Shown here piece after piece: positions 4,545 through 46,141 of a DNA stretch of 64,000 nucleotides (its first letter is position 1; each line of letters starts with the position of its first letter). Origin of the DNA: a virus. The notes under the pieces were generated by a model that had not been told where the DNA came from, searched no databases, and saw nothing but the letters and a program-made list of their open reading frames with translations. The translations under genes were made by a program, and so were the position numbers. The DNA lies in the IMG/VR virus record IMGVR_UViG_3300045988_126619, positions 32,001 through 96,000 of that record. One strand, 5' to 3'.

Positions 4545-4585
4545 AATTTATCTTTCCTTTTTTGTAAACGTTTTCAATAAAAAAA

Positions 4586-5551: not shown

Positions 5552-5615
5552 AAAATAATCTCCCCTTTTTATATTTTATGACCTAAATAATTCAATAACT
5601 TTTGTTAGATTTACT

Positions 5616-5879
5616 TTATCTTACTATCGCTTTATTTTCCCATTTCTTATAAGCATCAAAATACATAACATTCTTATCTCCATTATAAGTACATTCATAA
5701 TACATACCATCAAATAGAGTAGTGCTTAATAACGCCTTATTATTTTGTAAAGCCTTACAACTCCATACTACAAACACATCGTCTTCTGTAATATTTTTAT
5801 TATCAGACTTATCCAAATGGTCATTAGTATAATTACATATTTCTTGCTTACACCAATTTAAAAATTCCTTTTCATTCAT
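5616..5879 (-). CDS. hypothetical protein
   Basis: ORF track, AGGAG-type RBS, same-strand block. Confidence 0.6.
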   Translation of the reverse strand: MNEKEFLNWCKQEICNYTNDHLDKSDNKNITEDDVFVVWSCKALQNNKALLSTTLFDGMYYECTYNGDKNVMYFDAYKKWENKAIVR

Positions 5880-5902
5880 ATAAATACTCCTTTTAAAACC
5901 AA

Positions 5903-6364
5903 CTAAATTGTTTCTTCTTCTTCAACAGTTTCATAATTATTAGATTTACTTCTTACTTCTTCTAAAGCTTTTTTAATAGCATCTCTGATAGTTAATTTAA
6001 AGCATAAAGTTTTTGCTTCGGCTACCTTTTCTTTTGTATCTAATACTGAACCTAATTCTTCATCTTTTATCATTTTAGTTGCTATTGAAAAATCAACTTT
6101 TAAATCTTTGTCAATTTTAACAACCTTATTGTTTAATTTAAGCTTAATTGTTTCTCCGCTGTCCTTATCTTCTATTACGTCACCTTTACTATCTACAGAA
6201 AATTTACCTTCAAAAGTTAAATCCTTATATTCTATAGAAGTAGGAAAATTGATTAACATAGCTTCTTCTTCATTAGGTAAAATATCTACATTTCCTAATT
6301 CTTTGCATTTAACAGTCATATAAAAGACATTATTTTTAATATCCTTTTCGTATGATAAAACCAT
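5903..6364 (-). CDS. hypothetical protein
   Basis: ORF track, RBS GGAGGAAT upstream. Confidence 0.6.
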   Translation of the reverse strand: MVLSYEKDIKNNVFYMTVKCKELGNVDILPNEEEAMLINFPTSIEYKDLTFEGKFSVDSKGDVIEDKDSGETIKLKLNNKVVKIDKDLKVDFSIATKMIKDEELGSVLDTKEKVAEAKTLCFKLTIRDAIKKALEEVRSKSNNYETVEEEETI

Positions 6365-6386
6365 TGTAATTCCTCCTATAATAATA

Positions 6387-6659
6387 TTATTGTTGTTGTA
6401 AATTAATTTCTTTGCATCCCATTACCAGTTTGTATAACTGGTCTTTATCCATAACACATTCAAATTCTACATCCTCGAATTGCGTATCAAAGATATATAA
6501 CTTTGCAGTATTATCTTTTAGTAATTCAATTGCACAAGCTTTTGTACCTTGCATCTTTAATACAATCTTTTTCGCTTCTCTATTATTTTCAGAAGTATAA
6601 AGACGAATCATTTCTCCTTCTTTAAGTTCTGAAATATTCAATAAATTTCCAGTAAACAT
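6387..6659 (-). CDS. hypothetical protein
   Basis: ORF track, RBS AAGGAGG upstream. Confidence 0.55.
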   Translation of the reverse strand: MFTGNLLNISELKEGEMIRLYTSENNREAKKIVLKMQGTKACAIELLKDNTAKLYIFDTQFEDVEFECVMDKDQLYKLVMGCKEINLQQQ

Positions 6660-6717
6660 TTACATAAAACCTCCTTAATATATTTATATACATAAATAGA
6701 ACAGAATTAATCCTGTC

Positions 6718-7515
6718 CTATTCATTCACAACACATAGGTTTAGTTTATCAATGATATAATCTACACCTTTTCTAGTTAAATATGTTTTGCTATTGGCAT
6801 ATTTACAATTGATAGCTTTTACTTCGAAAATACCTTGTTCTAAATATTTTCTATATGGAACGTTTTTATTTTCTCCATTCTTCTGTAAATAGCCATTTTC
6901 TCTAAGCATATTAAACATATCATTTTGACCAACTCCTACAATAGCACCAAATGTTCTTATATTCATTAATCCGTCCGAATTAATATACTCGTCCCATTTT
7001 GAACTTTTTTCACCTTCAATTAAAAGCTGTTCTTCTAATTGTTTATTTTGTTTTATTGCTGTAAAGTAAGCTATTGCTCTATCTTCTTCGCTCATATTAA
7101 GATATCCAGTTAATGCAGAATTGTTAGCATTAATTAATTTTTGTTCAAGTTCATTTATATATTCAATTGTCTTTGCTCTCACAATAGCTGATTCTGAATT
7201 TAACATTTGTAACATACCATCACGGTTTAAACTAAAACATGGCTGTTCTTTATTTTGTTTATTGATATATGACGACTCCAAAATATTTTGGTGTCCTTCT
7301 AAACCTAGTGTTTCCAATACTTCTAGTTCTTTTCTAATTTTAGTCATAAAACTATCATGTCTTAATTCAACATACTTGTCTTTCTTATTTAATCCTTTTT
7401 CTTTTAATATTTCAAATTCTTCTTCTCTAAATTGATTAATAATTTCAACCAATTCTACACTTGTAATTCTTAATTCTTTTGTTTGTTCTGTAATTTCCAA
7501 TAATTCCTTAGACAT
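6718..7515 (-). CDS. phage antirepressor (Rha-like N domain + KilAC C domain)
   Basis: N-terminal ITSVELVEIINQFREEE resembles Rha. C-terminal LMNIRTFGAIVGVGQNDMFNMLRENGYLQ...YRKYLEQGIFEVK resembles KilAC. Confidence 0.7.
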   Translation of the reverse strand: MSKELLEITEQTKELRITSVELVEIINQFREEEFEILKEKGLNKKDKYVELRHDSFMTKIRKELEVLETLGLEGHQNILESSYINKQNKEQPCFSLNRDGMLQMLNSESAIVRAKTIEYINELEQKLINANNSALTGYLNMSEEDRAIAYFTAIKQNKQLEEQLLIEGEKSSKWDEYINSDGLMNIRTFGAIVGVGQNDMFNMLRENGYLQKNGENKNVPYRKYLEQGIFEVKAINCKYANSKTYLTRKGVDYIIDKLNLCVVNE

Positions 7516-7702
7516 TTCTTTTCCTCTTTTCTATATAAATTTTTTGTGGGATTTATATAGATTCATATAAATCCTTATGACAGGAGCAAAACCCCACATA
7601 TTCTACTCTCTGTCAATGTCTAAGAATAGAACAGTTTTACTGCTCTCATAAAGATTTATATTGTTTATTTTGTGTTTGTATTGAATACTCTATTGTAAAT
7701 TA

Positions 7703-7731
7703 ATTATAACATATCATTTATTTTATGTCAA
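7703..7731 (-). promoter_or_regulatory. sigmaA-type promoter carrying the conserved motif
   Basis: TTGACA-17-TATAAT on the minus strand; the spacer holds AAAATAAATGATA. A second motif variant sits at 7659-7674. Confidence 0.6.
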
Positions 7732-7783
7732 CTATTTTTTTATATGATGTAGGGAAGAAATTCCTCCCTACATATTTGTATCT

Positions 7784-8125
7784 CTAAATTGTTCCACTTA
7801 CTTGTTGTTGTATTGCTCCAAGTTTTGCAACTTCTACGTTATTTTTAGAAGTAGATTCATTAATACATATAGCGTGAGCCATATCTTCTTCCATTCCTGC
7901 ACTAATTAAAGCTAAATACATTCCTGCATATCTTGAACCAATTTTAGCACCTTCTGCTAATTCCTTAACATCATAAGCTAATCCTCTTAAATTAGTTGTA
8001 TCCATACATGGAATTTCAGCTAATTTCTTAACTATTTCAACTAATTCTTCTTGTGAGTAATCTTCTAAATCTCTAGGCATTTCTTTTACTTTTTCTTCTA
8101 CTTGTTTATTATTTTCTCTTTCCAT
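7784..8125 (-). CDS. hypothetical protein
   Basis: ORF track; followed by hairpin GTAGGGAAGAAATTCCTCCCTAC at 7750-7772. Confidence 0.6.
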   Translation of the reverse strand: MERENNKQVEEKVKEMPRDLEDYSQEELVEIVKKLAEIPCMDTTNLRGLAYDVKELAEGAKIGSRYAGMYLALISAGMEEDMAHAICINESTSKNNVEVAKLGAIQQQVSGTI

Positions 8126-8137
8126 ATACAGTCACCT

Positions 8138-8713
8138 CTAACACATTATTTTATCTATTACTCCTAATTCTAACGCAGTTTCTGCATCAAAGAAGAAGTT
8201 TTCTTTTCTATCATATATTTCGTTGATACGTTCACGTGGAATTTTTGTAAGCTTTGCATAATAATCAGCGGATTTCTCCCAAAGTTTCTTTTGAAATTCA
8301 ACTTCTCTTTCAAATTCCTTTAGTTCTCCACCTTGTCCAAATGATGTTTGATGTAATAGATATTGACTTAATCCATATCCAATACGTTCATCACAATGAA
8401 TTATTATGTCAAATGCCATTGAATAAGCAATAGATTCAACTACACCAATAACCTTTATTTTATGTTTTTGTAATCTCTTAATATTACCTATAATAGCATT
8501 ACCATGAATAACACTTCCACCATATGAGTTAATTAATAATGTAACTGTTTTTATTTTTTTATCTTTCATTCCTAAACTATCGTAAGATTTATTATTCTCA
8601 ATAATTTTGTTAGCATAATAAGAAACTGCTACTGCCATTTCCTCATTTACTACACCATTTAAATATATTCTGCCTTGATTTGCGGAAGCGTGTTCCATCT
8701 CCATTATATTCAT
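8138..8713 (-). CDS. ClpP-family serine protease
   Basis: INSYGGSV, SIAYSMAFD (Ser) and LLHQTS (His) match the ClpP signatures INSPGGSV / HQP. Confidence 0.75.
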   Translation of the reverse strand: MNIMEMEHASANQGRIYLNGVVNEEMAVAVSYYANKIIENNKSYDSLGMKDKKIKTVTLLINSYGGSVIHGNAIIGNIKRLQKHKIKVIGVVESIAYSMAFDIIIHCDERIGYGLSQYLLHQTSFGQGGELKEFEREVEFQKKLWEKSADYYAKLTKIPRERINEIYDRKENFFFDAETALELGVIDKIMC

Positions 8714-11469: not shown

Positions 11470-11544
11470 TGGCAGGTGGACTAGGAATCGAACCTAGACA
11501 AACAATTTTGGAGATTGTCATTCTAGCCATTAAATTACCCACCC
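11470..11544 (-). tRNA. tRNA-Trp (anticodon CCA), CCA encoded
   Basis: Cloverleaf by eye: acceptor GGGTGGG/TCCACCT, anticodon arm ACAAT-CTCCAAA-ATTGT, T arm CTAGG-TTCGATT-CCTAG. Confidence 0.85.
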
Positions 11545-11564
11545 ACATAAAAGAAAGACGAAGA

Positions 11565-11801
11565 TTATTCCTCGTCTTCACTTTCTTCTTCTACTTTAGC
11601 TAAATCACTTTCACTAACTGGTGTGTCTGCCTCTGTTATTACAACCTTCACATAGGCATTATCTACCCCTGCCATATCACATAATTTAGATAACTTCACA
11701 GGCACAGCAAACTCTTCTGATTCTAATGTCATTTTTTCAGTATCTAAGAATCCACTCGCTACTATCCCTGCCCCTTTAATTGTGATTGCACTTTTTGCCA
11801 T
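11565..11801 (-). CDS. hypothetical protein, acidic C terminus
   Basis: ORF track. Motif variant ATAAAATAAACAATA (11819-11833) and GGGGA RBS lie upstream. Confidence 0.6.
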   Translation of the reverse strand: MAKSAITIKGAGIVASGFLDTEKMTLESEEFAVPVKLSKLCDMAGVDNAYVKVVITEADTPVSESDLAKVEEESEDEE

Positions 11802-11842
11802 ATTTAATTGTCCCCTTTTATTGTTTATTTTATTTACAAAAA

Positions 11843-13297
11843 TTATAATTCTATTGTGAAATCTAATTCTGAAACAAAAACCTTTGTAGTTCTATTATTT
11901 TCAGATAACATATCTTCTAATTTTGCTTTTAATTCTTCTTTTGCTTCATCTTCACCGTGCATCAAAACTACTTTATTACAATTGCATTGTTTAATATAGT
12001 TTATCAAATCTGTTTGGCTTGCATGAGAACTAAAAGTATTAAATCTTCTAATATTACAATGTTTGATTAATATATCTTTTTTATCAAATTCAACCTTATC
12101 AAGTGTTTCATCTAATATTTGCCCACCTATACAATTAGGAGAACAATAACCACAAAATAATATACTAGAATTAGTTTGTCCTAATAATCTATGAGCATGA
12201 AGTGTACTTCTTCCTCCACTAATCATCCCGCTACTAGATAGTATTACTGCTTGCTGTTTTTTACTCATGAAAGCGATACTAGCATCATAACTATCTATAA
12301 ATTTAAAACATTCCCAATTAATTACTTGTTTCCAATATTCTAATTCTTCACCTTCTAAAATAGAGAATAATGCTTTATTTATTTTACATCCCAAATTTGT
12401 ATCAATAACAATTGGTATTTCTCTATTCCAACTATCTTTAAATGTATCATATAGATAACACATTATATTTTGAAGTCTGTGTTGAGCGAATACTGGAATT
12501 AATACAGAACCATTTCTGTCTAACGTTTGAATGATTTCTTTTTTAAATTCTTCACGTTCTCTTATACAGTCCTGTTTAGTGAAGTTTCTATCACCTTTAC
12601 CATAAGTAGATTCTAAAAATACAACATCTGCTTTAGCTACATTAATAGTAGGTTTAACAAAATAATTAAATTGGAAATTATCAGTATTACCTAAATCTCC
12701 CGAAAACAATATCTTTTTAACAGTATTTGTTCCATATTTTTTAATATATAAAACCAACTGTGTTGCTCCCATCATATGGCTATTATCTACATATTGAAAA
12801 GAAACATATTCGTCAACTTTAATTATTTCATTCATAGAAACTTCTTCTATTTTATCTAATACTTTCCACATATCTTGAGTTGTATATAGTGGTTTACATT
12901 TCTTTCCTGTTTGTTTTAAATATTTACAATCATCTTCATGTATTTTTGTTCCATCTTTCAACATTACTGGTGCTATAGTTTTATTTGCATTATTCATAAA
13001 TATTTTTCCTGCAAATTCTTTTACATTTAAATAAGGTAATCCTCCAACATGGTCTTGGTGATTATGTGTTACAAAAACATATTCAGCATATTTAATTGGT
13101 ATGTTTTCAAACATCTTTTTATTGTCCATATATTCATCCCATTTAGAACCACCTTGACAAGTTCCTAAATCTACTAATAAATGTTTTCTACCTTCTTGTG
13201 TCATGTAAGACACCATTGTACATGAACCTGTTACTTGGTGACTTTGTGAGCCACACGTAATACATATGATTTTATTATCTTTCCTCTTTTTACCCAT
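11843..13297 (-). CDS. MBL-fold beta-CASP nuclease (RNase J / CPSF / Artemis-like)
   Basis: HNHQDHVGG (HxHxDH) in the N-terminal third. 484 aa, matching the beta-CASP architecture. Confidence 0.75.
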   Translation of the reverse strand: MGKKRKDNKIICITCGSQSHQVTGSCTMVSYMTQEGRKHLLVDLGTCQGGSKWDEYMDNKKMFENIPIKYAEYVFVTHNHQDHVGGLPYLNVKEFAGKIFMNNANKTIAPVMLKDGTKIHEDDCKYLKQTGKKCKPLYTTQDMWKVLDKIEEVSMNEIIKVDEYVSFQYVDNSHMMGATQLVLYIKKYGTNTVKKILFSGDLGNTDNFQFNYFVKPTINVAKADVVFLESTYGKGDRNFTKQDCIREREEFKKEIIQTLDRNGSVLIPVFAQHRLQNIMCYLYDTFKDSWNREIPIVIDTNLGCKINKALFSILEGEELEYWKQVINWECFKFIDSYDASIAFMSKKQQAVILSSSGMISGGRSTLHAHRLLGQTNSSILFCGYCSPNCIGGQILDETLDKVEFDKKDILIKHCNIRRFNTFSSHASQTDLINYIKQCNCNKVVLMHGEDEAKEELKAKLEDMLSENNRTTKVFVSELDFTIEL

Positions 13298-13380
13298 AAC
13301 AAAAATTCCTCCACACTCTCCTTAATAGTAAATAGGAATCTTTGTTTTAGATAAAAGTTTCTCTATTTATCTATTAATAA

Positions 13381-13408
13381 ATAAAAAGGGTAGTCTTATC
13401 AACTACCC
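13381..13408 (-). terminator. rho-independent terminator
   Basis: GGGTAGT-7-ACTACCC followed by a T-run on the minus strand, just after the HU-like gene. Confidence 0.6.
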
Positions 13409-13424
13409 TAATTTAAACAATAAA

Positions 13425-13730
13425 CTATCTGTTTACTGCTGATGTTTTCTTTATCTTTACAACTTCCTTTGCAGGTGCTGTATGTGCAGGATATGTTACT
13501 CCATTTAATGTTCTTTCTGGAACTTCCTTTTCATCTTGCATTACTTTTTCTACTCTGATATAAGAACCTAATTTAATTCCTTCGTCTACTCCTAGTCTAT
13601 CTATTACTGCATCTACAACTACATCAAAATTAGCAACAAAATCTTCTGCTGATTTCTTTGTTTTTAGTTCTAATGCTTCCTTTACTACGTCTACTAATAC
13701 TTCTTTCTTTAATAACTCTACCTTTGCCAT
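13425..13730 (-). CDS. HU/IHF-family DNA-binding protein
   Basis: About 100 aa. The helix-helix-beta-arm layout is colinear with bacterial HU, with a KK..A...V..F start and an arm with P. Confidence 0.7.
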   Translation of the reverse strand: MAKVELLKKEVLVDVVKEALELKTKKSAEDFVANFDVVVDAVIDRLGVDEGIKLGSYIRVEKVMQDEKEVPERTLNGVTYPAHTAPAKEVVKIKKTSAVNR

Positions 13731-13783
13731 AATTCTTTTTCTCCTTTTCGTTTCTTAGATTTTTTATTATTGTTTATTTTATT

Positions 13784-13826
13784 TCGGTGTCACAGGAATT
13801 GAACCCATGTACGTGCCTACACACCG
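13784..13826 (-). ncRNA. tRNA-like minihelix (acceptor stem + T arm only)
   Basis: CGGTGTG-11 nt-ATGGG-TTCAATT-CCTGT-GACACCG-A. No D or anticodon arm. Confidence 0.4.
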
Positions 13827-13881
13827 ATGTTTCCTTTATTTATAAAAAAACAAAGGAATAAATACATGAACTTTAACACGT

Positions 13882-13954
13882 TGGAAATTATAGGACTTGA
13901 ACCTACATCTCTCCGACTACTACGGAGTGCTTTCACCAGTTAAACTAAACTTCC
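13882..13954 (-). tRNA. tRNA with anticodon GUA (Tyr-like) and atypical loop
   Basis: Full cloverleaf: GGAAGTT/AATTTCC, D arm GTTT..AAGC, anticodon arm CTCCG-TAGTAGT-CGGAG, T arm GTAGG-TTCAAGT-CCTAT. A at position 33, short variable arm. Confidence 0.65.
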
Positions 13955-14040
13955 ATATAAATCCTATTTCTTTTTCGTCTGTGTGAAATAGGTAAATGTC
14001 ACCAGTATACTATAATATATTATCAAGGAGGTGTTTATTA

Positions 14041-14092
14041 GGGAAATCAAGGAATCGAACCTCTTTTAATGTTTAACCATAAACAATTTCCC
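14041..14092 (-). ncRNA. D-arm-less tRNA-like element (pseudo-tRNA?)
   Basis: GGGAAAT / TGTTT-ATGGTTA-AAACA / TTAAA / AGAGG-TTCGATT-CCTTG / ATTTCCC. 52 nt. Confidence 0.4.
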
Positions 14093-14128
14093 ATGTTAAA
14101 AGATAAGAAATTAATCTTACCTTAATAT

Positions 14129-14203
14129 TGGCGAGGATAGGTGGAAGTCGAACCACCGTTCACAGGTTAACAGCCTGTTGTTCTACCATTGGACTATATC
14201 CTC
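14129..14203 (-). tRNA. tRNA-Asn (GUU), CCA encoded
   Basis: GAGGATA/TATCCTC acceptor, ACAGG-CTGTTAA-CCTGT, GGTGG-TTCGACT-TCCACC. Confidence 0.9.
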
Positions 14204-15111
14204 ATATTATTATCTTTGAAGGCTTTTAGATTCTATCCTTCTTCTTGACTTTCAGAAGACTTACTGTCTATCTCCCTTATCCACTAACTCATGCTAGTAT
14301 CAAGAAATGCCTGCTATTTTATATACCGTTAGCTTTTACGGTCTACTAATATACTACTCTACAGTTCGCATTATACTTGCCTTGCGAGCAATTAAGGATT
14401 GGCTAAATCCAAATACGCTGTTCCTTATAAAGTAATTAAGTCCTTGCGAGAACTCCATTACACTTTGTTACATCTCTGCCAAAGTATTAAGACACTTTCG
14501 TATATTAGGAAGAAGAATTTTCGCTTTAGTTATTTGTATTTCAAATAAAATATGATATCCTCAATCATCACTTAAATCTGCTATATTCTTCTTAACTTTT
14601 CCAAACAGAAGTCACATCTTCTTAGTTGTTTCCTTGCCTTTTGAGCAAAGCTATACAACAGCGACTTCGATGCTTTCACTCAATTTATAAGTTACTAACG
14701 GTTCTATAAGATACTTTAGGATACTCCCTATTTTTCTTATACAACTGGTTATCGCACTTGTGTAAATTTCACTCGTACTATTTAACCTTACACTTTAGAT
14801 TTTCCATTTCACTAGTTTAGCGTGAACTATCCAATTGCTAGTTGGAAGATTTCATTCTTTGGTTATTCCATTACTCTCTTGTCATTCCTAGCTTATAGGA
14901 CTTTACCATATTGCTGACTATATTTTCACTTAACCAATATGATAAACATTTAAATCTTGTGTATTGCTTGAATTGACCATAAATGGCGAATGGTTGTTAG
15001 CCACCCTTTACATATATTACTATATGCTATCTGTGTCAAGCCACAATACGCACCTATATTAGTGTACCAGTTACTTTTATTTTAAAGAGTTAAAGTAACA
15101 AACTTTCTTCT
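14204..15111 (-). ncRNA. candidate very large structured ncRNA (GOLLD/ROOL-like context)
   Basis: 908 nt with no ORF of 60 aa or more on either strand. Abutted by tRNA-Glu and tRNA-Asn on the same strand. Less AT-rich than its surroundings. Local hairpins and GNRA-type loops are present. Confidence 0.5.
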
Positions 15112-15186
15112 TGGTACTCCATAGCAGAATTGAACTGCTGTCTTCACCGTGAAAGGGTGATGGCTTAACCACTTGCCTAATGGAGC
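15112..15186 (-). tRNA. tRNA-Glu (UUC), CCA encoded
   Basis: GCTCCAT/ATGGAGT, TCACC-CTTTCAC-GGTGA, GCAG-TTCAATT-CTGC. Confidence 0.9.
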
Positions 15187-15202
15187 ATATTAAAAGATTT
15201 TA

Positions 15203-15276
15203 TGGAGCAGTAATCGAGAATCGAACTCGAAACTTCGGGTCGGAAGCACGACATTTTACCATTAAACTATTACTGC
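15203..15276 (-). tRNA. tRNA-Gly (UCC), CCA encoded
   Basis: GCAGTAA/TTACTGC, anticodon loop CTTCCGA, TCGAG-TTCGATT-CTCGA. Confidence 0.85.
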
Positions 15277-15320
15277 TCGTTTTATCTTTCGTTATTATTT
15301 TTCTGTTTCTCTTTCGTTCT

Positions 15321-15413
15321 TGGCGGAGAATGTAGGATTCGAACCTACGATACCCTATTTAAGAGTATGACAGATTAGCAATCTGCTGTCTTAAACCACT
15401 CGACCAATTCTCC
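15321..15413 (-). tRNA. tRNA-Ser (GCU), class II long variable arm, CCA encoded
   Basis: GGAGAAT/ATTCTCC, GCAGA-TTGCTAA-TCTGT, long variable arm, GTAGG-TTCGAAT-CCTAC. Confidence 0.9.
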
Positions 15414-20744: not shown

Positions 20745-20950
20745 CTACTCGAAATATGGACAAATATACCCATATTGAGATTTTTTACTGTTTCTTCGTA
20801 TCTCATTTTGTTCTATAGAACTACTTTGATTTGATATAATACTCCACAGTCGTAAATTCCCGACTAGCCATCGGTACATATCTATAATCACTTATTTTAT
20901 GCTATATTATAGATTTTTGCATCTCTCAAATTAAGACTTGCATTATAATC
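20745..20950 (-). ncRNA. candidate TnpB omega (re)RNA
   Basis: GC-richer structured stretch spanning the tnpB 3' end and downstream. It has CCGA-TGGCTAG-TCGG and GTCG-GGAATTTA-CGAC hairpins and the palindrome GTTCTATAGAAC. Boundaries are approximate. Confidence 0.4.
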
Positions 20951-22102
20951 TCTATCCTCAACGTACCCACATTCACATTTGTATATCCTATCACTAAGTT
21001 TTAAATCTTTCTTTATAGAACCACATTCATGACATAGTTTACTTGAAGGATAAAATCTATCAACAATTCTTAATTCAATTCCTAAAGCATTACATTTATT
21101 TGTTAACTTAGTTCTAAATTCATAAAACTTTTGTTGTGCTACTGCTTTAGATAAATGCTTATTCTTCATCATTCCTTTTACATTTAAATCTTCTATTGTA
21201 ACATAAGATGGTTTGTTTCTTATCACATCAGCTACAACTTTATTTATGTAATCAGTTCTTATATTTGTAAGTCTTTGGTGAAGTATTTGTACCTTAACTA
21301 TTTGTTTATGTATATTTTGTCTAGTAGCAACTCCTTTCTCTTTTTTATTTCTTATTTTTAAACTTTCATATTTCCTTGAGAGCTTTTTTTGTTCTCTTAA
21401 TAATTTCTTTTCTAATCTTTTAACTCTTTGAGTTTTATTTATATTTTTGTAATTTATTTTATTACTACAAATAGCAAAATCTTTAAGACCTAAATCAATA
21501 CCTACACCACAAGTATATTGCTTATTATCTATTGTTGGATTAACGTCAATAACTACTGACACATAATATCTATTAGCTTTTTTAGATACAGTTCCGCTAA
21601 CAACTTTTGCACTAACTGGAATATACCCATATTCTTTTAACCTTACATTCTTTAAAGTAGGTATCATTATTCTATGTCTGTCTACTTTCCAATCGCCTTT
21701 ATTATTTTTAGGAAAGTATATTTTAACATCAGATTTATTTTTCTTTTTAAATCTAGGAAATTTAGATTGACCTTTGAAGAATCTTTTGTATGCAGTTTCA
21801 GCATTTTGAATAGCTTTCTTTCTAGCTTTAGAACCACAATTATTTATCCATGTATATTCTTCTAAAACTTTAACTTCATTATTTATATATTTGTCAAAAT
21901 CATTAGCTGACATAAACGCTTGTTTTTTATCAATACAACCATCTTTGAATTGGTTATATAATTCATTATTTTTAGCCAAATATTCATTATACAACCATCT
22001 ACAAACTCCGATACTTTGATTAATCTTTTGTATCTGTTTTTGTGTTGGTTTTATTTCTACTTTGTAAGCTTTTAATCGCTTATCATTTATTCTGTGTTTC
22101 AT
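20897..22102 (-). CDS. tnpB: TnpB RNA-guided endonuclease (IS605 OrfB family)
   Basis: RuvC triad context GIDLGLKDF, IEDLNVKGM, DRDYNASLNL. Zinc finger CHECGS...CECG. Start set to ATG 22102 (AGAGGTG RBS). Confidence 0.85.
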   Translation of the reverse strand: MKHRINDKRLKAYKVEIKPTQKQIQKINQSIGVCRWLYNEYLAKNNELYNQFKDGCIDKKQAFMSANDFDKYINNEVKVLEEYTWINNCGSKARKKAIQNAETAYKRFFKGQSKFPRFKKKNKSDVKIYFPKNNKGDWKVDRHRIMIPTLKNVRLKEYGYIPVSAKVVSGTVSKKANRYYVSVVIDVNPTIDNKQYTCGVGIDLGLKDFAICSNKINYKNINKTQRVKRLEKKLLREQKKLSRKYESLKIRNKKEKGVATRQNIHKQIVKVQILHQRLTNIRTDYINKVVADVIRNKPSYVTIEDLNVKGMMKNKHLSKAVAQQKFYEFRTKLTNKCNALGIELRIVDRFYPSSKLCHECGSIKKDLKLSDRIYKCECGYVEDRDYNASLNLRDAKIYNIA

Positions 22103-22263
22103 ATTAATATCACCTCTTGAGTATATATTAACACATTCAAACACATTTGTCAACATTTTTATTAACTATTTTATCTCTCCTTTATAATTAATTTTATGTG
22201 GCTAGATATAATTTCTAACCACATTTATATCTTATCATTTATTTTATGTTCTATATACATTAT

Positions 22264-36793: not shown

Positions 36794-37081
36794 ATGAAAA
36801 GAATATTGTTAGGAACATTGACATTAATTTTTACATCTAGTTTATTATTAGGATGTAGTGAAACAATAAACTCTGGTTATACTTCATCAGATAAAGATGG
36901 AGTATTAATATCAATAGAAAATAATATAATGTGTGGGGCAAATCAAGATATTAAAGTGGTAACTTTTGGAGAAGAAAAATTAGAAAATTATTCAATAGAA
37001 AAGAATGATGATGGTACTAAAGATGTAATATTGCATTTATCAACTAATACAAATAAATACAGAAAAGAGGAGAATAAATAA
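36794..37081 (+). CDS. lipoprotein
   Basis: Signal peptide with lipobox LLLGC. Confidence 0.65.
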   Translation: MKRILLGTLTLIFTSSLLLGCSETINSGYTSSDKDGVLISIENNIMCGANQDIKVVTFGEEKLENYSIEKNDDGTKDVILHLSTNTNKYRKEENK

Positions 37082-37938
37082 TGATATTAAATTGTAAAGA
37101 AATAAGAGAAAAGGCTATTGATAAAATAAAACAAGAAGGGAATATAGAAAACTGTAAAGCAGTATTTGTTCAAGTTGGAGAAGACCAATCTTCTAATGTA
37201 TATGTTAGAAATAAAATAAAACTTTGTGAGGAAGTTGGAATTAATGTAGAGCATATGCAATTTGCAAGTAATGTTGAAGAAAATGAACTAATTAACTTTA
37301 TAAAAATAATGAATATGGATGAATATATACATGGGATAATGGTACAATTACCTTTACCAAAGCATATAAGTGAAGAAACAATCATTAATACAATAGACCC
37401 TAAAAAAGATATAGATGGTTTTACGCACAGCAATAAAGGTAAATTAATGGTAGGGGATAGTTCAGCTATGATTCCTTGTACACCTTTAGGAATTATGGAT
37501 ATATTAGATTACACAGCAACAGATGTTGAAGGTAAGAATGTGGTAATAGTTGGAAGAAGTAACATTGTGGGAAAACCTATCGCTCAATTATTGATAAATA
37601 AAGGTGCTACAGTTACTGTATGTAATAGTAAAACAAATAAACATTATTTGGGAGAACTTATATCAAGAGCAGATATATTTATAAGTGCAATTGGACAACC
37701 AAATTATTTTAACAAAGAGTTCTTTGATTCAGTTGATATTCCTACTACAAGATTAAAAAACATAGTAGCAATTGATGTGGGAATAAATAGAGATTCAGAT
37801 AATAAATTGTGTGGAGATATTTCAAGAGAATTATATGATGATTTTAACATAATCACACCTGTACCAAATGGAGTGGGAGTAATGACCGTATTAAACGTAA
37901 TAAAAAATATTATTAAATGCTATAAAAATCAAATTTAA
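37081..37938 (+). CDS. folD: bifunctional methylenetetrahydrofolate dehydrogenase/cyclohydrolase
   Basis: VGRSNIVGKPIAQLL and TPVPNGVGVMTV signatures; 285 aa. Confidence 0.85.
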   Translation: MILNCKEIREKAIDKIKQEGNIENCKAVFVQVGEDQSSNVYVRNKIKLCEEVGINVEHMQFASNVEENELINFIKIMNMDEYIHGIMVQLPLPKHISEETIINTIDPKKDIDGFTHSNKGKLMVGDSSAMIPCTPLGIMDILDYTATDVEGKNVVIVGRSNIVGKPIAQLLINKGATVTVCNSKTNKHYLGELISRADIFISAIGQPNYFNKEFFDSVDIPTTRLKNIVAIDVGINRDSDNKLCGDISRELYDDFNIITPVPNGVGVMTVLNVIKNIIKCYKNQI

Positions 37939-38139: not shown

Positions 38140-38853
38140 TTGGCAGAAGATAAAATTAAATACTTAGAAGAACTTAGAGATAAATTAGAAAAGTCTAATA
38201 TAAGAGAATTTAAAAATTGGACTAAGCTATGTGAACTATTTTCGTGGAAAATTACTAGAGGAACATATAAACTTGCTAGAGAAAAAGAATTATCAATAAT
38301 TTGTCAATGGGAAAAGATTGGGAATAAAATAAAAATAAAAAAAATAAATAACAATATACAAAAGTCAGATATAAAAGATGGAAGGAGCGATATGATATTT
38401 GGTGGATATAATAATGTTAAAATTGGTAAAAATGAATACGATAATATAGGTATATATATTATTATTGATAAAGACAATAACTGTTATATTGGTTCTACCA
38501 TACAAGGTTTTAAACAAAGGTTTTACGACCATTATAGAAAAAAACACAAATCCATGCAACATACGTATGATTTATTACATGATAATTATGCAGAATTTAG
38601 AATATTGCACGATATGACAGATATTGAAGATGTAGAACTTATTCGTATGGTAGAAGATGAATATATCCAATATTACAAATCTCTACCACAATATAATGTT
38701 ATAAATAGAGCAGAAAAAGCTTATTATAAAGGTTATTGTAAAAAACAAAAATATAAAAGTTTAAAAATAAAAGAAGAAGATTATATGTTAGCTATTAAAA
38801 TATTGCAAGATAATAATATTGAAATAAAAGGAGAGTTATTAGATTATGAGTAA
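38140..38853 (+). CDS. GIY-YIG endonuclease with N-terminal domain shared with 27502..28605
   Basis: IGIYIIIDKDNNCYIGSTIQGFKQRFYDHYRK. TTG start after GGGGG RBS. Confidence 0.65.
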   Translation: MAEDKIKYLEELRDKLEKSNIREFKNWTKLCELFSWKITRGTYKLAREKELSIICQWEKIGNKIKIKKINNNIQKSDIKDGRSDMIFGGYNNVKIGKNEYDNIGIYIIIDKDNNCYIGSTIQGFKQRFYDHYRKKHKSMQHTYDLLHDNYAEFRILHDMTDIEDVELIRMVEDEYIQYYKSLPQYNVINRAEKAYYKGYCKKQKYKSLKIKEEDYMLAIKILQDNNIEIKGELLDYE

Positions 38854-41186: not shown

Positions 41187-41224
41187 GCAAACCATATTAT
41201 ACAACAACATAGAACAGGGTAAAA

Positions 41225-41255
41225 GGGAAGATTGCTAACGCATCTTCTCCTTTTT
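41225..41255 (+). terminator. rho-independent terminator ending the plus-strand block
   Basis: GGGAAGAT-9-ATCTTCTCC followed by TTTTT. Confidence 0.55.
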
Positions 41256-41317
41256 AACTCATAAAACAAGTTTTATTCGTTATAGTTTGTTTTTTATTAT
41301 CTATACCTACAACTATA

Positions 41318-41512
41318 TACCCCCCCCATATATGAAGTATATCCGCCCATATAAGCTTCTTATACCCCTCCCCTTATAACTTTACTATTTATATTTGCAG
41401 GGTGCTTAGAACAGCTAATAGGGTTATTATTTTGTTATATGTTTACGACTGCAATATACCCCCTCCCTACCTATATATAATTATTGGCATTAATACGTTA
41501 AGTACCCGCCCT
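41318..41512. repeat. cluster of C-tract boxes (TATA-CCC[CG]CCC-TA)
   Basis: C8 at 41320-41327, CCGCCC at 41343-41348, CCCCTCCCC at 41365-41373, CCCCCTCCC at 41459-41467, CCCGCCC at 41505-41511. One more at 41776-41780. Confidence 0.6.
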
Positions 41513-41514
41513 AC

Positions 41515-41543
41515 TTGACAACAATTAAAAATAGTATTATAAT
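41515..41543 (+). promoter_or_regulatory. consensus sigmaA promoter in the non-coding region
   Basis: TTGACA-17-TATAAT bracketed by inverted CCCTACTT / AAGTAGGG. The only downstream candidate is a 29-codon ORF at 41636-41725. Confidence 0.45.
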
Positions 41544-42165
41544 AGTAATAAAGAAGTAGGGTAGAATAATAGATATTTACTCTATGAAATGGCAATAAGT
41601 TCTTTGAAAAGTAAATAAAAAGGGTGTTTTTGAAAATGGATATATCCGATGATTTACATATGTTTATGAGTGATGTTATGAGAAAAGTGTTACTCGTCAA
41701 AAAATACAAAATGTGTGTAGATTAAGGAGAGGATGGCTTTGTTCACGAATTGAACACAGTAAACGTTTACAAGTACCCCCTAGTATACGTTTTCATACGA
41801 TATATAACAGAGTATAAGTATACATTATACGTTGTTACCTATGTACTAGGCTTTACCAGTAATAAGGGAAAATATTTTCATAAATTGAACACTCATTAAT
41901 GTTATGTATATATTTGTTACGTACCTATACACACACACACACACCAACATAACAAAATGTTAATATCAAGTACAGTATTAGTAAACATAAAGTTTAATAT
42001 TAATGAACTATTACCACCATAAAGTTTTGTATTACTATACTTTGTGTTCACTATTACTATACTTGATTTATATATAAGATAAGATTTGAACGTTTGTTAT
42101 TTGTATAGTTGTTCAAGTTTCAATAGTTCAAATCTTATTTTCTCTTATATTTGATATCATGTTAT

Positions 42166-42650
42166 ATGGTATTATATACTACATTAACAAGTTTGACATA
42201 CAATGATAGAGTTGTTCTAGCAAAAGAGTTATCGAATACCACTTTAAGAGGTTTGACAAGTTATACATTATGTGTTCTAAGTTATATAGTAATGAATACT
42301 ACATAATAAGATTTGACAAACGCTATAACATTTGTTCTAAGATAAGAGTTATTGAATACCATATAAGAAGGCTTGACAAACTATGTTTGATTTGTTCTAA
42401 ATTTTTGGATACTATTTTGAGTGATTTGTCAAGAGTTAATTTATAAGAGGTATTTAATACTGCATTATAAGGTTTGACATAATAATAATTTTATATCTAG
42501 TTTTTTAGAACGACTGATTTTGTTTTGTCAAGTATAATTTTATATATGGTATTGGATACTGTTTAATAAGGTTTGACACATGATGATTTATATGCTCTAA
42601 GAATTTAGATACTATTTTTATAGTTTTGTCAATGGTTAATTTTAGGAGAT
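42166..42650. repeat. array of bipartite TTGACA-N16-TTCTAA elements (direct and face-to-face)
   Basis: Forward TTGACA at 42193, 42253, 42313 and 42373 (exact 60-bp period), then 42474 and 42573. Reverse units lie at 42405-32, 42505-31 and 42605-32. One more reverse unit is at 43029-43055. Confidence 0.75.
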
Positions 42651-43411
42651 ATAGTGTATTTAATATGTATACATATGTATGTGTATGAAGTACACCAATC
42701 TATACACGTACAATATAACGACAATTTAGATTTGAACGTGAATTTAAGAACGAAAATAACCTTGTAATTAATCATTTATTTTGTGTTTGAATTTACATTT
42801 TTGTGAGAATTGAAGATAGCTGAAACGTAGTCATATCAATGGTTTGCAGGCTTACAAATATTCCTAATTAATGATAATATATATCATTTACATAAGAATA
42901 TAGTATAGTAAAGGTTTACAACGCATTTATTACGTTATTTTACGACTGTTTTATAACTGGTATTTTAAGAGATATTAAGAACACGAACGTTTAACGTATT
43001 GTGGTGTGAAACATTCAGATAACATATATTAGAACAAGTATTTTGATTTTGTCAAGTTTTTAGCGGAATAGAGTAGTATTGTACAATATATGAACAAGTA
43101 TAGTATTAGTAAACAAAAGTTTATAAATAGTAAACAATTATCAGAATATTATGAGCGTGTATAATAACGATAATGGAACGATAGAACGGTTTTATTTTTC
43201 AAGGTATTAGTTTACCTGCGATTTTTGGGCGTGAATCTAAACGTTTACATGGGCATTAGAATTGATTGACCAGTCAACATATTGAGTAGTTTTGTAAACG
43301 TTTACAGAGTATGAGTGTTCAACAAGTGAACTATTGTTCTGAATAGTGTATAATTAAATAATATGCGAACCTTATCAAGTGCAAAAAAATAACTAGCGTA
43401 TAGAACGTTAG

Positions 43412-43621
43412 TTATTGATATATAGATAAAGCTATTAATATTAATATACATAGAGTTGAAAACATTTGTAAGTTGCGTATAATACGTTGAATACTGTTTA
43501 ATGGTTTGAAATCAAGTGACACGTTATAAGAAGTTTTGTTATTATTAGTTATCTTTTTGCTGAATGTTAATGTAGTATTGAATACCATGTTAAAAGTTCT
43601 ATTATAAGTTGTTGTTATCAT
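43412..43621 (-). CDS. hypothetical protein with C-terminal TM segment
   Basis: ORF track. AGAGGTG RBS and motif variant 43636-43650 lie directly upstream. Confidence 0.5.
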   Translation of the reverse strand: MITTTYNRTFNMVFNTTLTFSKKITNNNKTSYNVSLDFKPLNSIQRIIRNLQMFSTLCILILIALSIYQ

Positions 43622-43651
43622 ATCTTTACACCTCTTATTATTTATTTTATG

Positions 43652-43768
43652 CTATATAAATTTATAAGTATAAACTTGTTCCTTAATATCTTTAATACCT
43701 AGAATGAATGATAGTTGTTTTTTGTCTACCACCTTTTGAGTTCCATCTTTAAAAAATATCTTACACAT
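43652..43768 (-). CDS. small protein (38 aa)
   Basis: ATG after AAAGGTGGTAATAA RBS and motif variant 43798-43812. Sequence MCKIFFKDGTQKVVDKKQLSFILGIKDIKEQVYTYKFI. Confidence 0.4.
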   Translation of the reverse strand: MCKIFFKDGTQKVVDKKQLSFILGIKDIKEQVYTYKFI

Positions 43769-43818
43769 AATTTTATTACCACCTTTACATTTTTTGTTAT
43801 CATTTATCTTATGTACTC

Positions 43819-43847
43819 ATTATATAATAAATTTTGGATATAGTCAA
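43819..43847 (-). promoter_or_regulatory. sigmaA-type promoter (divergent pair, leftward)
   Basis: TTGACT-17-TATAAT, then 6 nt, then CATAAGATAAATGATAA. Confidence 0.55.
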
Positions 43848-43935
43848 CATTTTAAGTAATATTTTTATTAATTATTTTATGTTATATATTATATATAATG
43901 TAGAGAAAATTTTAATAATATTTTTACTTAAAATG

Positions 43936-43964
43936 TTGACATAAGATAAACAATAATATATAAT
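43936..43964 (+). promoter_or_regulatory. sigmaA-type promoter (divergent pair, rightward)
   Basis: TTGACA-17-TATAAT, spacer TAAGATAAACAATAATA. Confidence 0.6.
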
Positions 43965-44009
43965 AGTAGTTGTAAAGGACAATAGAATAAATTTAAAGAG
44001 GTGCTGTAA

Positions 44010-44336
44010 ATGAAACTTAATATTAAAAAATTAGATGGTTCAAAAGAACAAATTAAATGTGATAATTTTTCAATATTAACATATGAAAAAGATAAAAATA
44101 TTAAAGAATTATATAGTGGAAGTGAAATAGAAAGAATAACAGTAATGTCGGGTATTGTAGATAAAAACATGAGATTGCATGACTGTAAAATAAAATATTT
44201 AGCGTTAATATCACTATTAGACAAAAGCGATAAAGCTCAACCTTGGATGAAAATAGATTTAAACAATTCAAGTGTTGGTGACATTCAACAAAGAACAAGA
44301 GAAATAGAAGAATATATAATAGAATCTTTATGTTAA
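44010..44336 (+). CDS. hypothetical protein
   Basis: ORF track, AGAGGTG RBS. Confidence 0.6.
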   Translation: MKLNIKKLDGSKEQIKCDNFSILTYEKDKNIKELYSGSEIERITVMSGIVDKNMRLHDCKIKYLALISLLDKSDKAQPWMKIDLNNSSVGDIQQRTREIEEYIIESLC

Positions 44337-44407
44337 GCTTAAAAAGTGCTGACGAGTCTTTGAAAATTAAGACGAAACTAGGGGCAACCCTAGTCCACTT
44401 TAAAAGT
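44337..44407 (+). ncRNA. type I hammerhead ribozyme
   Basis: Stem I AAAGTG/CACTTT; core CTGACGA; stem II GTCTT-8-AAGAC; GAA; stem III ACTAGGG-GCAA-CCCTAGT; cleavage triplet GTC ending at C44395. Confidence 0.8.
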
Positions 44408-44437
44408 GAATTTTAATTAAATAAGGAGCGTTTAAAG

Positions 44438-44869
44438 ATGATTAAAATATTAAGAGTTGTTCAATTAAAACATATTAAAAAGGTTAAAATATTAGATGGA
44501 GATAATAAAATTACTATAGATTTTAGTAAGAATATTACGAAAATTAATAACAATCCTTTTGACACTTTTTCTAAAACTGTTATAAATGGAATACCAAACA
44601 AATATATTCACTTAGAAAAATTGTTTAACAATGAAGATAGAGAAAATATGTTAAACATTGTTTATGATATGATAGTAAAGGGTTGTTATAGCATAAGCAA
44701 TGATTATATCTATATAGATTATAATGGTAATGAATATAGAATTAATACACGTAATAAAGATAGTTTTATAATAGGAAGAATAGGAGATAATGAACTTGTT
44801 ACACGCTTTTATTATGAAGTAAATAATATAAAATCTAATACAGTATATGAAGTATTGTCTAATTGTTAA
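44438..44869 (+). CDS. hypothetical protein
   Basis: ORF track, AAGGAGCG RBS. Confidence 0.6.
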   Translation: MIKILRVVQLKHIKKVKILDGDNKITIDFSKNITKINNNPFDTFSKTVINGIPNKYIHLEKLFNNEDRENMLNIVYDMIVKGCYSISNDYIYIDYNGNEYRINTRNKDSFIIGRIGDNELVTRFYYEVNNIKSNTVYEVLSNC

Positions 44870-44890
44870 TAATGTTTTTATTAAAAGTTG

Positions 44891-44919
44891 TTGACATTTA
44901 TAAAATTATCTATTATAAT
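44891..44919 (+). promoter_or_regulatory. sigmaA-type promoter; motif lies downstream in the leader
   Basis: TTGACA-17-TATAAT. The motif at 44937-44951 abuts the AAGGAGCG RBS. Confidence 0.6.
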
Positions 44920-44965
44920 ATAGGCATAGTAAACGAACAAAATAAATGATAAGGAGCGATAAGAT

Positions 44966-45445
44966 ATGAAAAAATTTAACAAAGGTGATATAGTATTATG
45001 TAAGAATGTTATAGGAGCAAACTACATTTTATGTAAAGTAATTGATGGAAATTATTCAGATAGGGCAATAGAGGTGCAAGTATTAAAAAATAACGCTTAT
45101 ACAGTAGTTAGCTTGATTTACTGCAAAAAGGTTACACAAAACACTATCAAAAAAGAAATACAAAGGGAATTAATAGCAAATGGAGTGACTAAAGAAGATT
45201 TAGATAACAATGTTTTTGAAGATTTTATTTCATTAGAGTTATTATGTGCTATAAAAGCATTTGCGTTAAACTTTGTTAAGTTGACAATATCTGATTTAAA
45301 GGCTATTAAGTATTGTGACGAATACGACAACGCAGAGGACTTTAAGCAAACAATTATATTTTCATTTTTTGATTACTTATTGGATAATGATAATATAACA
45401 ATAACTCAATTTAAAAATACAATTGTAAAGAATTTAACAGTATAA
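44966..45445 (+). CDS. hypothetical protein
   Basis: ORF track. Confidence 0.6.
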   Translation: MKKFNKGDIVLCKNVIGANYILCKVIDGNYSDRAIEVQVLKNNAYTVVSLIYCKKVTQNTIKKEIQRELIANGVTKEDLDNNVFEDFISLELLCAIKAFALNFVKLTISDLKAIKYCDEYDNAEDFKQTIIFSFFDYLLDNDNITITQFKNTIVKNLTV

Positions 45446-45460
45446 GGAGCGTGTAAAGAT

Positions 45461-45661
45461 ATGATTAAGTGTGTAAAGGAAATTAAGCCAAATGACGTAT
45501 TGGATTTAGGTGGTAACATTTTTAACAATACAAGGTCGGTTTGTACATTAGTAAGTTATGGAATATGTGGCGACACATACGAACTCAATTTAAAGTCGGA
45601 ACAAACTGGAGAATATTTTACTCAAGAATTTAAAAATACTGATAATATTGTGGTGTGGTAA
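45461..45661 (+). CDS. hypothetical protein
   Basis: ORF track, AAGGAGCG RBS. Confidence 0.55.
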   Translation: MIKCVKEIKPNDVLDLGGNIFNNTRSVCTLVSYGICGDTYELNLKSEQTGEYFTQEFKNTDNIVVW

Positions 45662-45674
45662 AGGAGCGTTAACA

Positions 45675-45860
45675 ATGAATAGAATTAATGATTTGATAGA
45701 AAAACAGTTTTTAACTTATGACGAACTTGCAGAACTAACACTCTCTAGTTATGTTGAAAGTGTTATTGACAATGGGAATAGTGGTTTACATTATGGATAT
45801 AAATGGTTTTCGGTTATAGTGAATGATTTTGACTTTGACATATACGTTAAATATGATTAA
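45675..45860 (+). CDS. hypothetical protein
   Basis: Track ORF trimmed to ATG 45675 after AAGGAGCG. Confidence 0.55.
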   Translation: MNRINDLIEKQFLTYDELAELTLSSYVESVIDNGNSGLHYGYKWFSVIVNDFDFDIYVKYD

Positions 45861-45874
45861 GGAGTGTAGGCAAT

Positions 45875-46141
45875 ATGTGGAAAAAGATATTTGATATTAA
45901 TAATCAATTAAAACAAGTTACAAACGATATTAAGGCAAGCGACAAGCAAATACACGCTATAGAGGTTAATAAGCAAGGATTATTATATATTAATAGTGTA
46001 ATAGGTGTGGCTAATGACGTGGCAACTGGAAATTATTGTTTGATAGGTGTAGTTGATAGTGGTTTGAGTTCAAATGATGAACGACTAAAGTTATACTTAC
46101 AAAATATAATAAATGAATACAATGAATTAAGAAGTGTATAA
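45875..46141 (+). CDS. hypothetical protein
   Basis: ORF track, AAGGAGTG RBS. Confidence 0.55.
   Translation: MWKKIFDINNQLKQVTNDIKASDKQIHAIEVNKQGLLYINSVIGVANDVATGNYCLIGVVDSGLSSNDERLKLYLQNIINEYNELRSV

Follow-up and report, generated by a model that had tools for sequence, protein, structure and literature searches.

The element at 44337-44407 of the window, i.e., of the entire 64,000-nt stretch of viral DNA analyzed here, is very probably a self-cleaving type I hammerhead ribozyme of a subtype found in phages of gut Clostridia and would serve intercistronic mRNA processing and insulation. Its identity as a real type I hammerhead is confirmed, as all defining sequence and structure features are present. 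The element lies between two small co-directional cistrons, termed ORF108 and ORF143 according to their lengths in amino acids, and its parts are listed together with the surrounding signals in Table 1.

Table 1. Parts of the hammerhead ribozyme and of the two-gene transcription unit around it (window coordinates).
Feature	Position	Strand	Remark
Promoter, sigma-70/sigma-A type consensus, TTGACA-17-TATAAT, 12/12	43936-43964	+	conserved in L092
Predicted transcription start of the ORF108 - hammerhead - ORF143 transcript	near 43971	+	
RBS of ORF108, AAAGAGGTG	about 43996-44004	+	
ORF108, upstream cistron, 108 aa	44010-44336	+	stop TAA at 44334-44336
Complete type I hammerhead ribozyme, distal stem I extension included	44337-44407	+	71 bases
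Stem I, entire 5' strand, GCUU-AA-AAAGUG = GCUUAAAAAGUG	44337-44348	+	
Stem I, distal GCUU	44337-44340	+	
Stem I, AA of the internal loop	44341-44342	+	
Stem I, proximal 5' strand, AAAGUG	44343-44348	+	fold; covariation in equivalent columns
Catalytic core C3-A9, CUGACGA	44349-44355	+	
Stem II, GUCUU / AAGAC	44356-44360 / 44369-44373	+	subtype signature (with loop II)
Loop II, 8 nt, UGAAAAUU	44361-44368	+	
Catalytic core G12-A13-A14, GAA	44374-44376	+	
Stem III, A15.1-CUAGGG-GCAA-CCCUAG-U16.1	44377-44394	+	fold; covariation
A15.1	44377	+	
CUAGGG-GCAA-CCCUAG	44378-44393	+	
U16.1	44394	+	
Predicted scissile bond, C17 (44395) / C44396	44395-44396	+	hammerhead consensus
Stem I, 3' strand, CACUUU-AA-AAGU = CACUUUAAAAGU	44396-44407	+	
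RBS of ORF143, AAGGAG	44423-44428	+	28 nt past the predicted cut
ORF143, downstream cistron, 143 aa	44438-44869	+	ATG at 44438

The type I hammerhead core strand C3-U4-G5-A6-N7-G8-A9 is present between stems I and II and the G12-A13-A14 strand between stems II and III. Stem III is closed by the A44377-U44394 pair and followed by C44395 as H17, a non-G nucleotide as required, while the pairs adjacent to the core are G44356-C44373 (10.1-11.1) and G44348-C44396 (1.1-2.1). With an open stem I and with loops closing stems II and III, the topology is that of type I. In folding of 44337-44411, the three-way junction was both the minimum free energy (MFE) structure and the centroid (-21 kcal/mol, z -3.94), and none of 200 shuffles was as good. 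The preliminary description had called the site a canonical type I hammerhead, which is borne out by all sequence and structure features, by the junction as the MFE fold and by a subtype covariance model (see below). Moreover, reading of the sequence at 44100-44640 reproduced every coordinate of that description base for base, including the ribosome binding site (RBS) placed at about 44424, where AAGGAG was found. The heptamer CTGANGA occurs ten times on the two strands of the window, and only the copy at 44349 has a stem II and then GAAA after it. Likewise, descriptor scans of the window for further type I/III and type II hammerheads gave no credible candidate, and a whole-window Rfam scan by E-value detected no other ribozyme, pistol and twister included. 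At the 5' edge of the element, two in-frame stop codons stand in tandem (TAA GCT TAA, 44334-44342). The second TAA (44340-44342) forms, together with the next A, the motif UAAA which precedes stem I in most members of the subtype; this hints at a motif kept for RNA structure, beyond its role as a stop codon.

An Rfam covariance check, which had been proposed along with the first description, gave a divided result. The Hammerhead_1 model (RF00163) aligned with the element from end to end, but its score of only 21.2 bits, with an E-value of 0.0071 when 251 nt were scanned, stayed below the gathering threshold of 34. Scans of the whole window, both at Rfam gathering thresholds and by E-value, did not report the element. 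RF00163 agrees with the element in topology and core consensus (CUGAcGAGUC ... GACGAAAC ... GUC), whereas its stems II and III are shorter than those in the window. The low score is due to insertions of 12 nt each in stems II and III compared to the 45-position model, with no consensus nucleotide missing. Hence, the missed cut-off is a limit of this short model and not an absent biological feature. At 20 other loci with the subtype, Rfam likewise returned no hammerhead at gathering threshold. As the subtype falls below the Hammerhead_1 threshold, it is probably undercounted in routine annotation.

Relatives of the element were searched in IMG/VR by a pattern which fixed the core and stem II alone (CTGACGAGTCTT-N4-16-AAGACGAAAC) and which matched 90 viral contigs (91 matches). 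Loop II was nearly uniform among the matches (UGAAAAUU, or UGAGAAUU, UGCAAAUU and few others); stems I and III were wholly different. The 30 nt of core and stem II are identical to those of the window in most of the 90 contigs as well as in 43 species genomes. Nearly all of the latter belong to gut Clostridia (Lachnospiraceae, Christensenellaceae, Oscillospiraceae, and others), and their copies most likely sit in prophages. An exact match to the 30-mer/31-mer was additionally found in one unannotated faecal phage record of GenBank, and a megablast of 43000-46000 against the INPHARED phages gave no match. By its sequence, the window element belongs to this subtype, i.e., to type I hammerheads of gut-Clostridia phages and prophages which are marked by GUCUU-UGAAAAUU-AAGAC.

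The flanks of the fixed pattern allowed an assessment of the remaining structure. A complete stem I (at least 4 bp), stem III, the A15.1-U16.1 pair and a non-G H17 were present in 80 of the 91 matches, versus 0.34% with shuffled flanks, and H17 was C in 70, A in 8 and U in 3 of 81 parsed members. In alignments of 52 and 41 distinct sequences, 96% of the cells of stems I and III were paired compared to 25-43% with the partner column slid, the aligned sets having been selected for at least 4 bp, which 80 of the 91 unselected matches passed. Changes on both sides of a pair were counted in 174 cells versus 45 in shuffles and affected ten pairs, namely every stem I pair and four of the six stem III pairs. 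The corresponding covariation score was 0.56-0.64 versus about 0.10 in shuffles. Stem II is invariant across the subtype and thus gives no covariation information, and the invariance of C3-A9 in the 52 members of alignment A1 concerns a region fixed by the search pattern itself. N7 is U in the close relative L096 (CUGAUGA). A covariance model trained on 41 viral relatives, with the window left out, found a single match in the 128 kb scanned, at 44339-44405 with 77.1 bits and an E-value of about 8e-24 by rough calibration. Conservation of the core in related phages, on which the preliminary description had made its reading depend, is found in 90 viral contigs, together with stem II and with covarying stems I and III. 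Additionally, A-rich strands flank the 5-6 bp of stem I throughout the subtype, with an AAA consensus on both sides and one 5' column of at least 90% A. The AA/AA internal loop of the window element occupies these columns, by which docking of loop II on this internal loop, as suggested in the preliminary description, is made plausible.

The position between genes is a property of the whole subtype. In about two-thirds of 58-60 unique members, a co-directional stop codon lies at most 13 nt upstream of stem I, mostly at 0 ± 1 nt, and in about 47 of 58 members a start codon follows 10-62 nt past the cleavage site, mostly at 20-45 nt and often with a GGAGG-like RBS before it, all counts being derived from a naive ORF caller. 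The window, with 6 nt between stop codon and stem I and 42 nt between predicted cut and start codon, fits this arrangement. The same slot is used by other ribozymes. In contig L075 (IMGVR_UViG_3300042922_000923), ten consecutive intergenic spacers at 2900-8600 contain one self-cleaving ribozyme each, eight of them pistols and two hammerheads of the window subtype, and each of these extends from the stop codon of the preceding gene to about 30 nt short of the following start. Besides, a twister-P5 is found near the hammerhead of contig L033. Since unrelated ribozyme folds fill the same slot, cleavage itself appears to be the selected function.

The contig of which the window is part is 159 kb long, is assigned to Caudoviricetes and stems from a metagenome assembly at ENA. 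Pfam and PHROG scans of ten neighboring ORFs returned nothing for ORF108 or ORF143, a PDB profile search with ORF108 yielded noise only (E 0.087 or worse), and the AlphaFold (AF2) model of ORF108 was poor (pLDDT 44.8). Back-translated IMG/VR searches with ORF108 and ORF143 retrieved no relatives. Homologues of ORF108 (P0003-P0006) are 60-94% identical to it. A second perfect 12/12 promoter is located just after ORF143 (44891-44919, plus strand), and a divergent 11/12 promoter upstream of ORF108 (43847-43819, minus strand). The promoters around ORF108 and ORF143 look as if several small early genes stood here in a block, each with a promoter of its own.

Comparison of related contigs revealed that ORF108 and the ribozyme behave as a cassette. 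In contig L092, the promoter is the same and ORF143 is 91% identical, but ORF108 and the ribozyme are both absent, so that the promoter is directly followed by the RBS of ORF143. The indel between the two (L092 480-600 versus window 43925-44440) comprises the block of ORF108 and hammerhead at about 44001-44412, with edges accurate to ±10 nt; these boundaries were read directly from the sequences, as a global MAFFT alignment misplaced the right end. In L096, a 94%-identical ORF108 is accompanied by the same two minus-strand neighbor genes and by a hammerhead truncated at the end of the contig. L095 is a different small phage which encodes lysis genes; it contains a 64%-identical ORF108 homologue with a homologous hammerhead directly after it (70.7 bits), in which stem I (GAAGUG/CACUUC) and stem III (ACGGG-GCAA-CCCGU) show compensatory changes relative to the window, and its similarity to the window stops at the 3' edge of the ribozyme. 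Contigs L093 and L094, which are phi29-like and encode a Phage_connector, possess ORF108 homologues without a hammerhead, and the ribozyme is thus dispensable for ORF108. In these small phages, the homologue opens the series of genes behind a strong promoter and lies near the contig end, possibly the genome end, which suggests that ORF108 is an early gene moving between very different phage types. It may also serve host takeover or anti-defence. Judged from these comparisons, ORF108 and the hammerhead are one unit which is gained, lost and transferred together, although the ORF can occur without the ribozyme. Mosaic joints at the ribozyme were also found elsewhere in the subtype. L024 and L025 are 89% identical upstream and through the core, whereas stem III and the downstream gene differ; L001 and L044 have stem III and the downstream gene in common with L025, and their upstream genes are unrelated. 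L025 thus resembles a composite of L024, for the upstream part, and L001, for stem III and the downstream gene. The homology between L020 and L045 breaks at the hammerhead likewise.

Separation of the upstream mRNA from the downstream cistron by cleavage agrees with the subtype-wide order of stop codon, ribozyme and RBS, and the hammerhead most likely cuts the two-gene transcript apart. We infer activity in vivo, the docking contact and an effect on expression in the following manner. A bicistronic RNA would be started at the consensus promoter, and the three-way junction would fold once the ribozyme is transcribed, with a probable docking contact between loop II and the A-rich internal loop in stem I. 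Self-cleavage after C44395 would then generate a monocistronic ORF108 mRNA of about 425 nt, the 3' end of which would consist of the compact ribozyme fold and a 2',3'-cyclic phosphate on C17, as well as an ORF143 mRNA with a 5'-OH on C44396 and a fixed 42-nt leader including its own RBS. By this cut, the two cistrons would become independent of each other in stability and translation. Moreover, a context-independent 5' end of the downstream mRNA would enable the promoter-less block of ORF108 and ribozyme to stand between a promoter and the gene that originally came first after it.

The main rival of processing and insulation is an active ribozyme for down-tuning, in which the 5'-OH would expose the ORF143 mRNA to 5'-to-3' decay by RNase J1 and leave ORF108 in excess; we consider this possible, though doubtful. 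In Firmicutes, 5'-OH ends are substrates of RNase J1, and Collins et al. reportedly observed in 2007 that such ends are sensitive to this enzyme in the glmS mRNA of Bacillus. A host with RNase J is suggested by the near confinement of the subtype to Bacillota/Clostridia genomes and by the portal of the window phage (Caudoviricetes), which is closest to those of Firmicute phages (about 30% identical to Brevibacillus, Staphylococcus, Bacillus, and Lactococcus phage portals). In addition, glmS cleavage was described to reduce expression (PMC6765202). Nevertheless, the RBS lies just 28 nt from the new 5' end, where nearby ribosome binding may be protective, and the presence of a ribozyme in every spacer of L075 would be a strange means of silencing a whole operon. 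Furthermore, 5'-terminal hairpins, which would block 5'-end-dependent decay, are more frequent in the 3' products of subtype members than expected: 27 of the 58 begin with a hairpin of at least 4 bp versus 11.1 ± 2.7 in shuffles, the sequences being related and not independent. In the window, such a hairpin can be drawn at 44396-44408 (CACUU-UAA-AAGUG) from the 3' strand of stem I and a downstream AAGUG repeat, and, once cleavage has occurred, it would close off the 5' terminus of the downstream RNA. By itself, this hairpin is not significant (P about 0.1), and the fold of the window 3' cleavage product was no different from shuffles (z -0.49). The same hairpin replaces stem I in the MFE structure of the 146-nt context, by which folding into the active form is not guaranteed. 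This leads to the very unlikely alternative of a conditional switch, in which the hairpin, or ribosomes terminating 6 nt 5' of stem I, would block folding and tie cleavage to the translation rate or another signal. The abutment of stop codon and stem I throughout the subtype fits such a switch, as a ribosome that terminates there would probably sit on the 5' strand of stem I. Still, the two folds are near-isoenergetic by energies that exclude tertiary docking, the lack of significance of the hairpin and the inconspicuous 3' product speak against it, and the element features no ligand-binding or extra domain.

A role at the DNA level, i.e., a 30-nt block acting as a recombination linker at module boundaries with ribozyme activity being secondary or merely tolerated, is unlikely, too. 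It would account for the breaks of inter-contig homology exactly at the hammerhead (L024/L025, L001/L044, and L020/L045) and at the ribozyme edges in the comparisons of the window with L092 and L095. Yet stems I and III stay paired through many compensatory changes and the catalytic nucleotides are invariant, which indicates selection on RNA, and pistols without any sequence in common with the element take equivalent positions. Linker role and RNA role are, however, not mutually exclusive. It is extremely improbable that the site is a chance look-alike, an inactive relic or an intrinsic terminator of the minus strand. The Rfam score below threshold would be in line with a look-alike or relic, but the independent subtype model gives an E-value of about 1e-23, every core nucleotide is intact, and the copies in L095 and L096 are conserved, with the compensatory changes in L095. 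A terminator scan did call the stem III hairpin with its T-rich tail on the minus strand (44396-44375). This candidate was rejected, since the genes to the right of the site are all on the plus strand and no minus-strand transcription unit converges on it.

Processing and insulation by the hammerhead, combined with its place at mosaic joints, give rise to a broader and still tentative proposal, which we hold to be rather doubtful. Self-cleaving ribozymes might act as punctuation of plug-and-play phage genes: a promoter-less ORF and its 3' hammerhead would travel together, the displaced gene would be insulated via a short, hairpin-capped leader, the 30-nt core would offer a recombination joint between unrelated phages, and pistol or twister ribozymes would be interchangeable with it. 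The abutment of stop codon and stem I, the distance to the RBS, the mosaic breakpoints and the interchangeability with pistols are all testable and would be useful for the design of insulators in Gram-positive hosts. The locus itself represents a simple test case with a single ribozyme between two small cistrons under one consensus promoter, and the window and L092 form a natural pair of the same operon with and without the element.

Further features of potential interest were noted in other parts of the window. Upstream of the ORF108 promoter, about 2.8 kb (41190-44000) following the helicase region contain no ORF of at least 80 aa. Within this stretch, degenerate repeats of 60-120 nt at 42161-42642 carry the motifs TTGACA/TGTCAA in either orientation, while C-rich motifs ATATACCCCCC are found at 41315-41469 and a run of (CA)n near 41930. 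The stretch could represent an origin, an array of promoters or a terminal region. A gene for a FolD-like tetrahydrofolate dehydrogenase/cyclohydrolase (37081-37938, plus strand, PHROG E 5.8e-79) is followed by an ORF with a GIY-YIG domain (38140-38853, plus strand), possibly a homing endonuclease. A GOLLD RNA match covering the full model length (14220-14669, minus strand, E 4.5e-28) reached 110 bits versus a gathering threshold of 150 and is embedded among six minus-strand tRNA genes (11473-15413). Moreover, a RAGATH-18 RNA above gathering threshold (20785-20850, minus strand, 71.4 bits) is located directly downstream of a transposase-like ORF of 419 aa (20897-22156, phrog_506). TnpB of the IS607 type is paired with a guide RNA derived from RAGATH-18 (PMC11061315). 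The arrangement at 20785-22156 on the minus strand matches this pairing and would constitute an RNA-guided nuclease element inside a phage.

The occurrence of hammerheads in intergenic regions of phages and prophages, often flanking single genes of varying identity, has been on record since 2011 (Perreault et al., PMC3088659). They were proposed to cut long transcripts into gene-length mRNAs (PMC3088659; reviewed in PMC6765202), and it has yet to be proven which role is played by the genomic hammerheads, of which bacteria and phages contain thousands (PMC3088659, PMC6765202). The present analysis adds a populous subtype from gut-Clostridia phages which the Rfam threshold misses. The strict geometry of stop codon, ribozyme and RBS, the finding that ORF and ribozyme are gained and lost together, and the occurrence of the ribozyme at mosaic breakpoints are further modest additions.

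Compared with these earlier hammerheads, the window element is of the same class, occurs in the same setting between co-directional phage genes and is assigned the same function as proposed for them. Differences are found in the emphasis on type II forms and pseudoknot contacts there, whereas the window element is of type I with loop II and a stem I internal loop, and in the ribozyme clusters described in PMC3088659 as opposed to a single ribozyme in the window. The invariant GUCUU-UGAAAAUU-AAGAC stem-loop is a further feature which distinguishes the window element from those forms, and the part of the supplementary text of Perreault 2011 that was available contains no occurrence of the loop II motif. 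With the RAGATH-1 hammerhead (RF03152), the element has the hammerhead core and a similar stem III in common; its score is weak, though, with 20.9 bits far below the gathering threshold of 56.3, and the 5' hairpin of this family is absent in the window (0 of 13 nt aligned). Pistol and twister ribozymes (RF02679, RF02684; PMC4604425) occupy the same intercistronic slots, but with unrelated folds and catalytic cores. The glmS ribozyme is self-cleaving in Gram-positive mRNA, as is predicted for the window element, whereas its fold is different and its cofactor domain has no counterpart here. In Firmicutes, glmS undergoes metabolite-dependent self-cleavage in the mRNA leader, which leaves a 5'-OH end decisive for the fate of the mRNA and lowers expression via RNase J1. 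In insulators of the RiboJ type, a hammerhead is placed just 5' of the RBS and removes the upstream context, leaving a fixed short leader, to which a small hairpin is added in some designs. RiboJ was reportedly engineered as an insulator by Lou et al. in 2012 from a type III satellite-RNA hammerhead. By analogy, the natural element between ORF108 and ORF143 may work like such an insulator.
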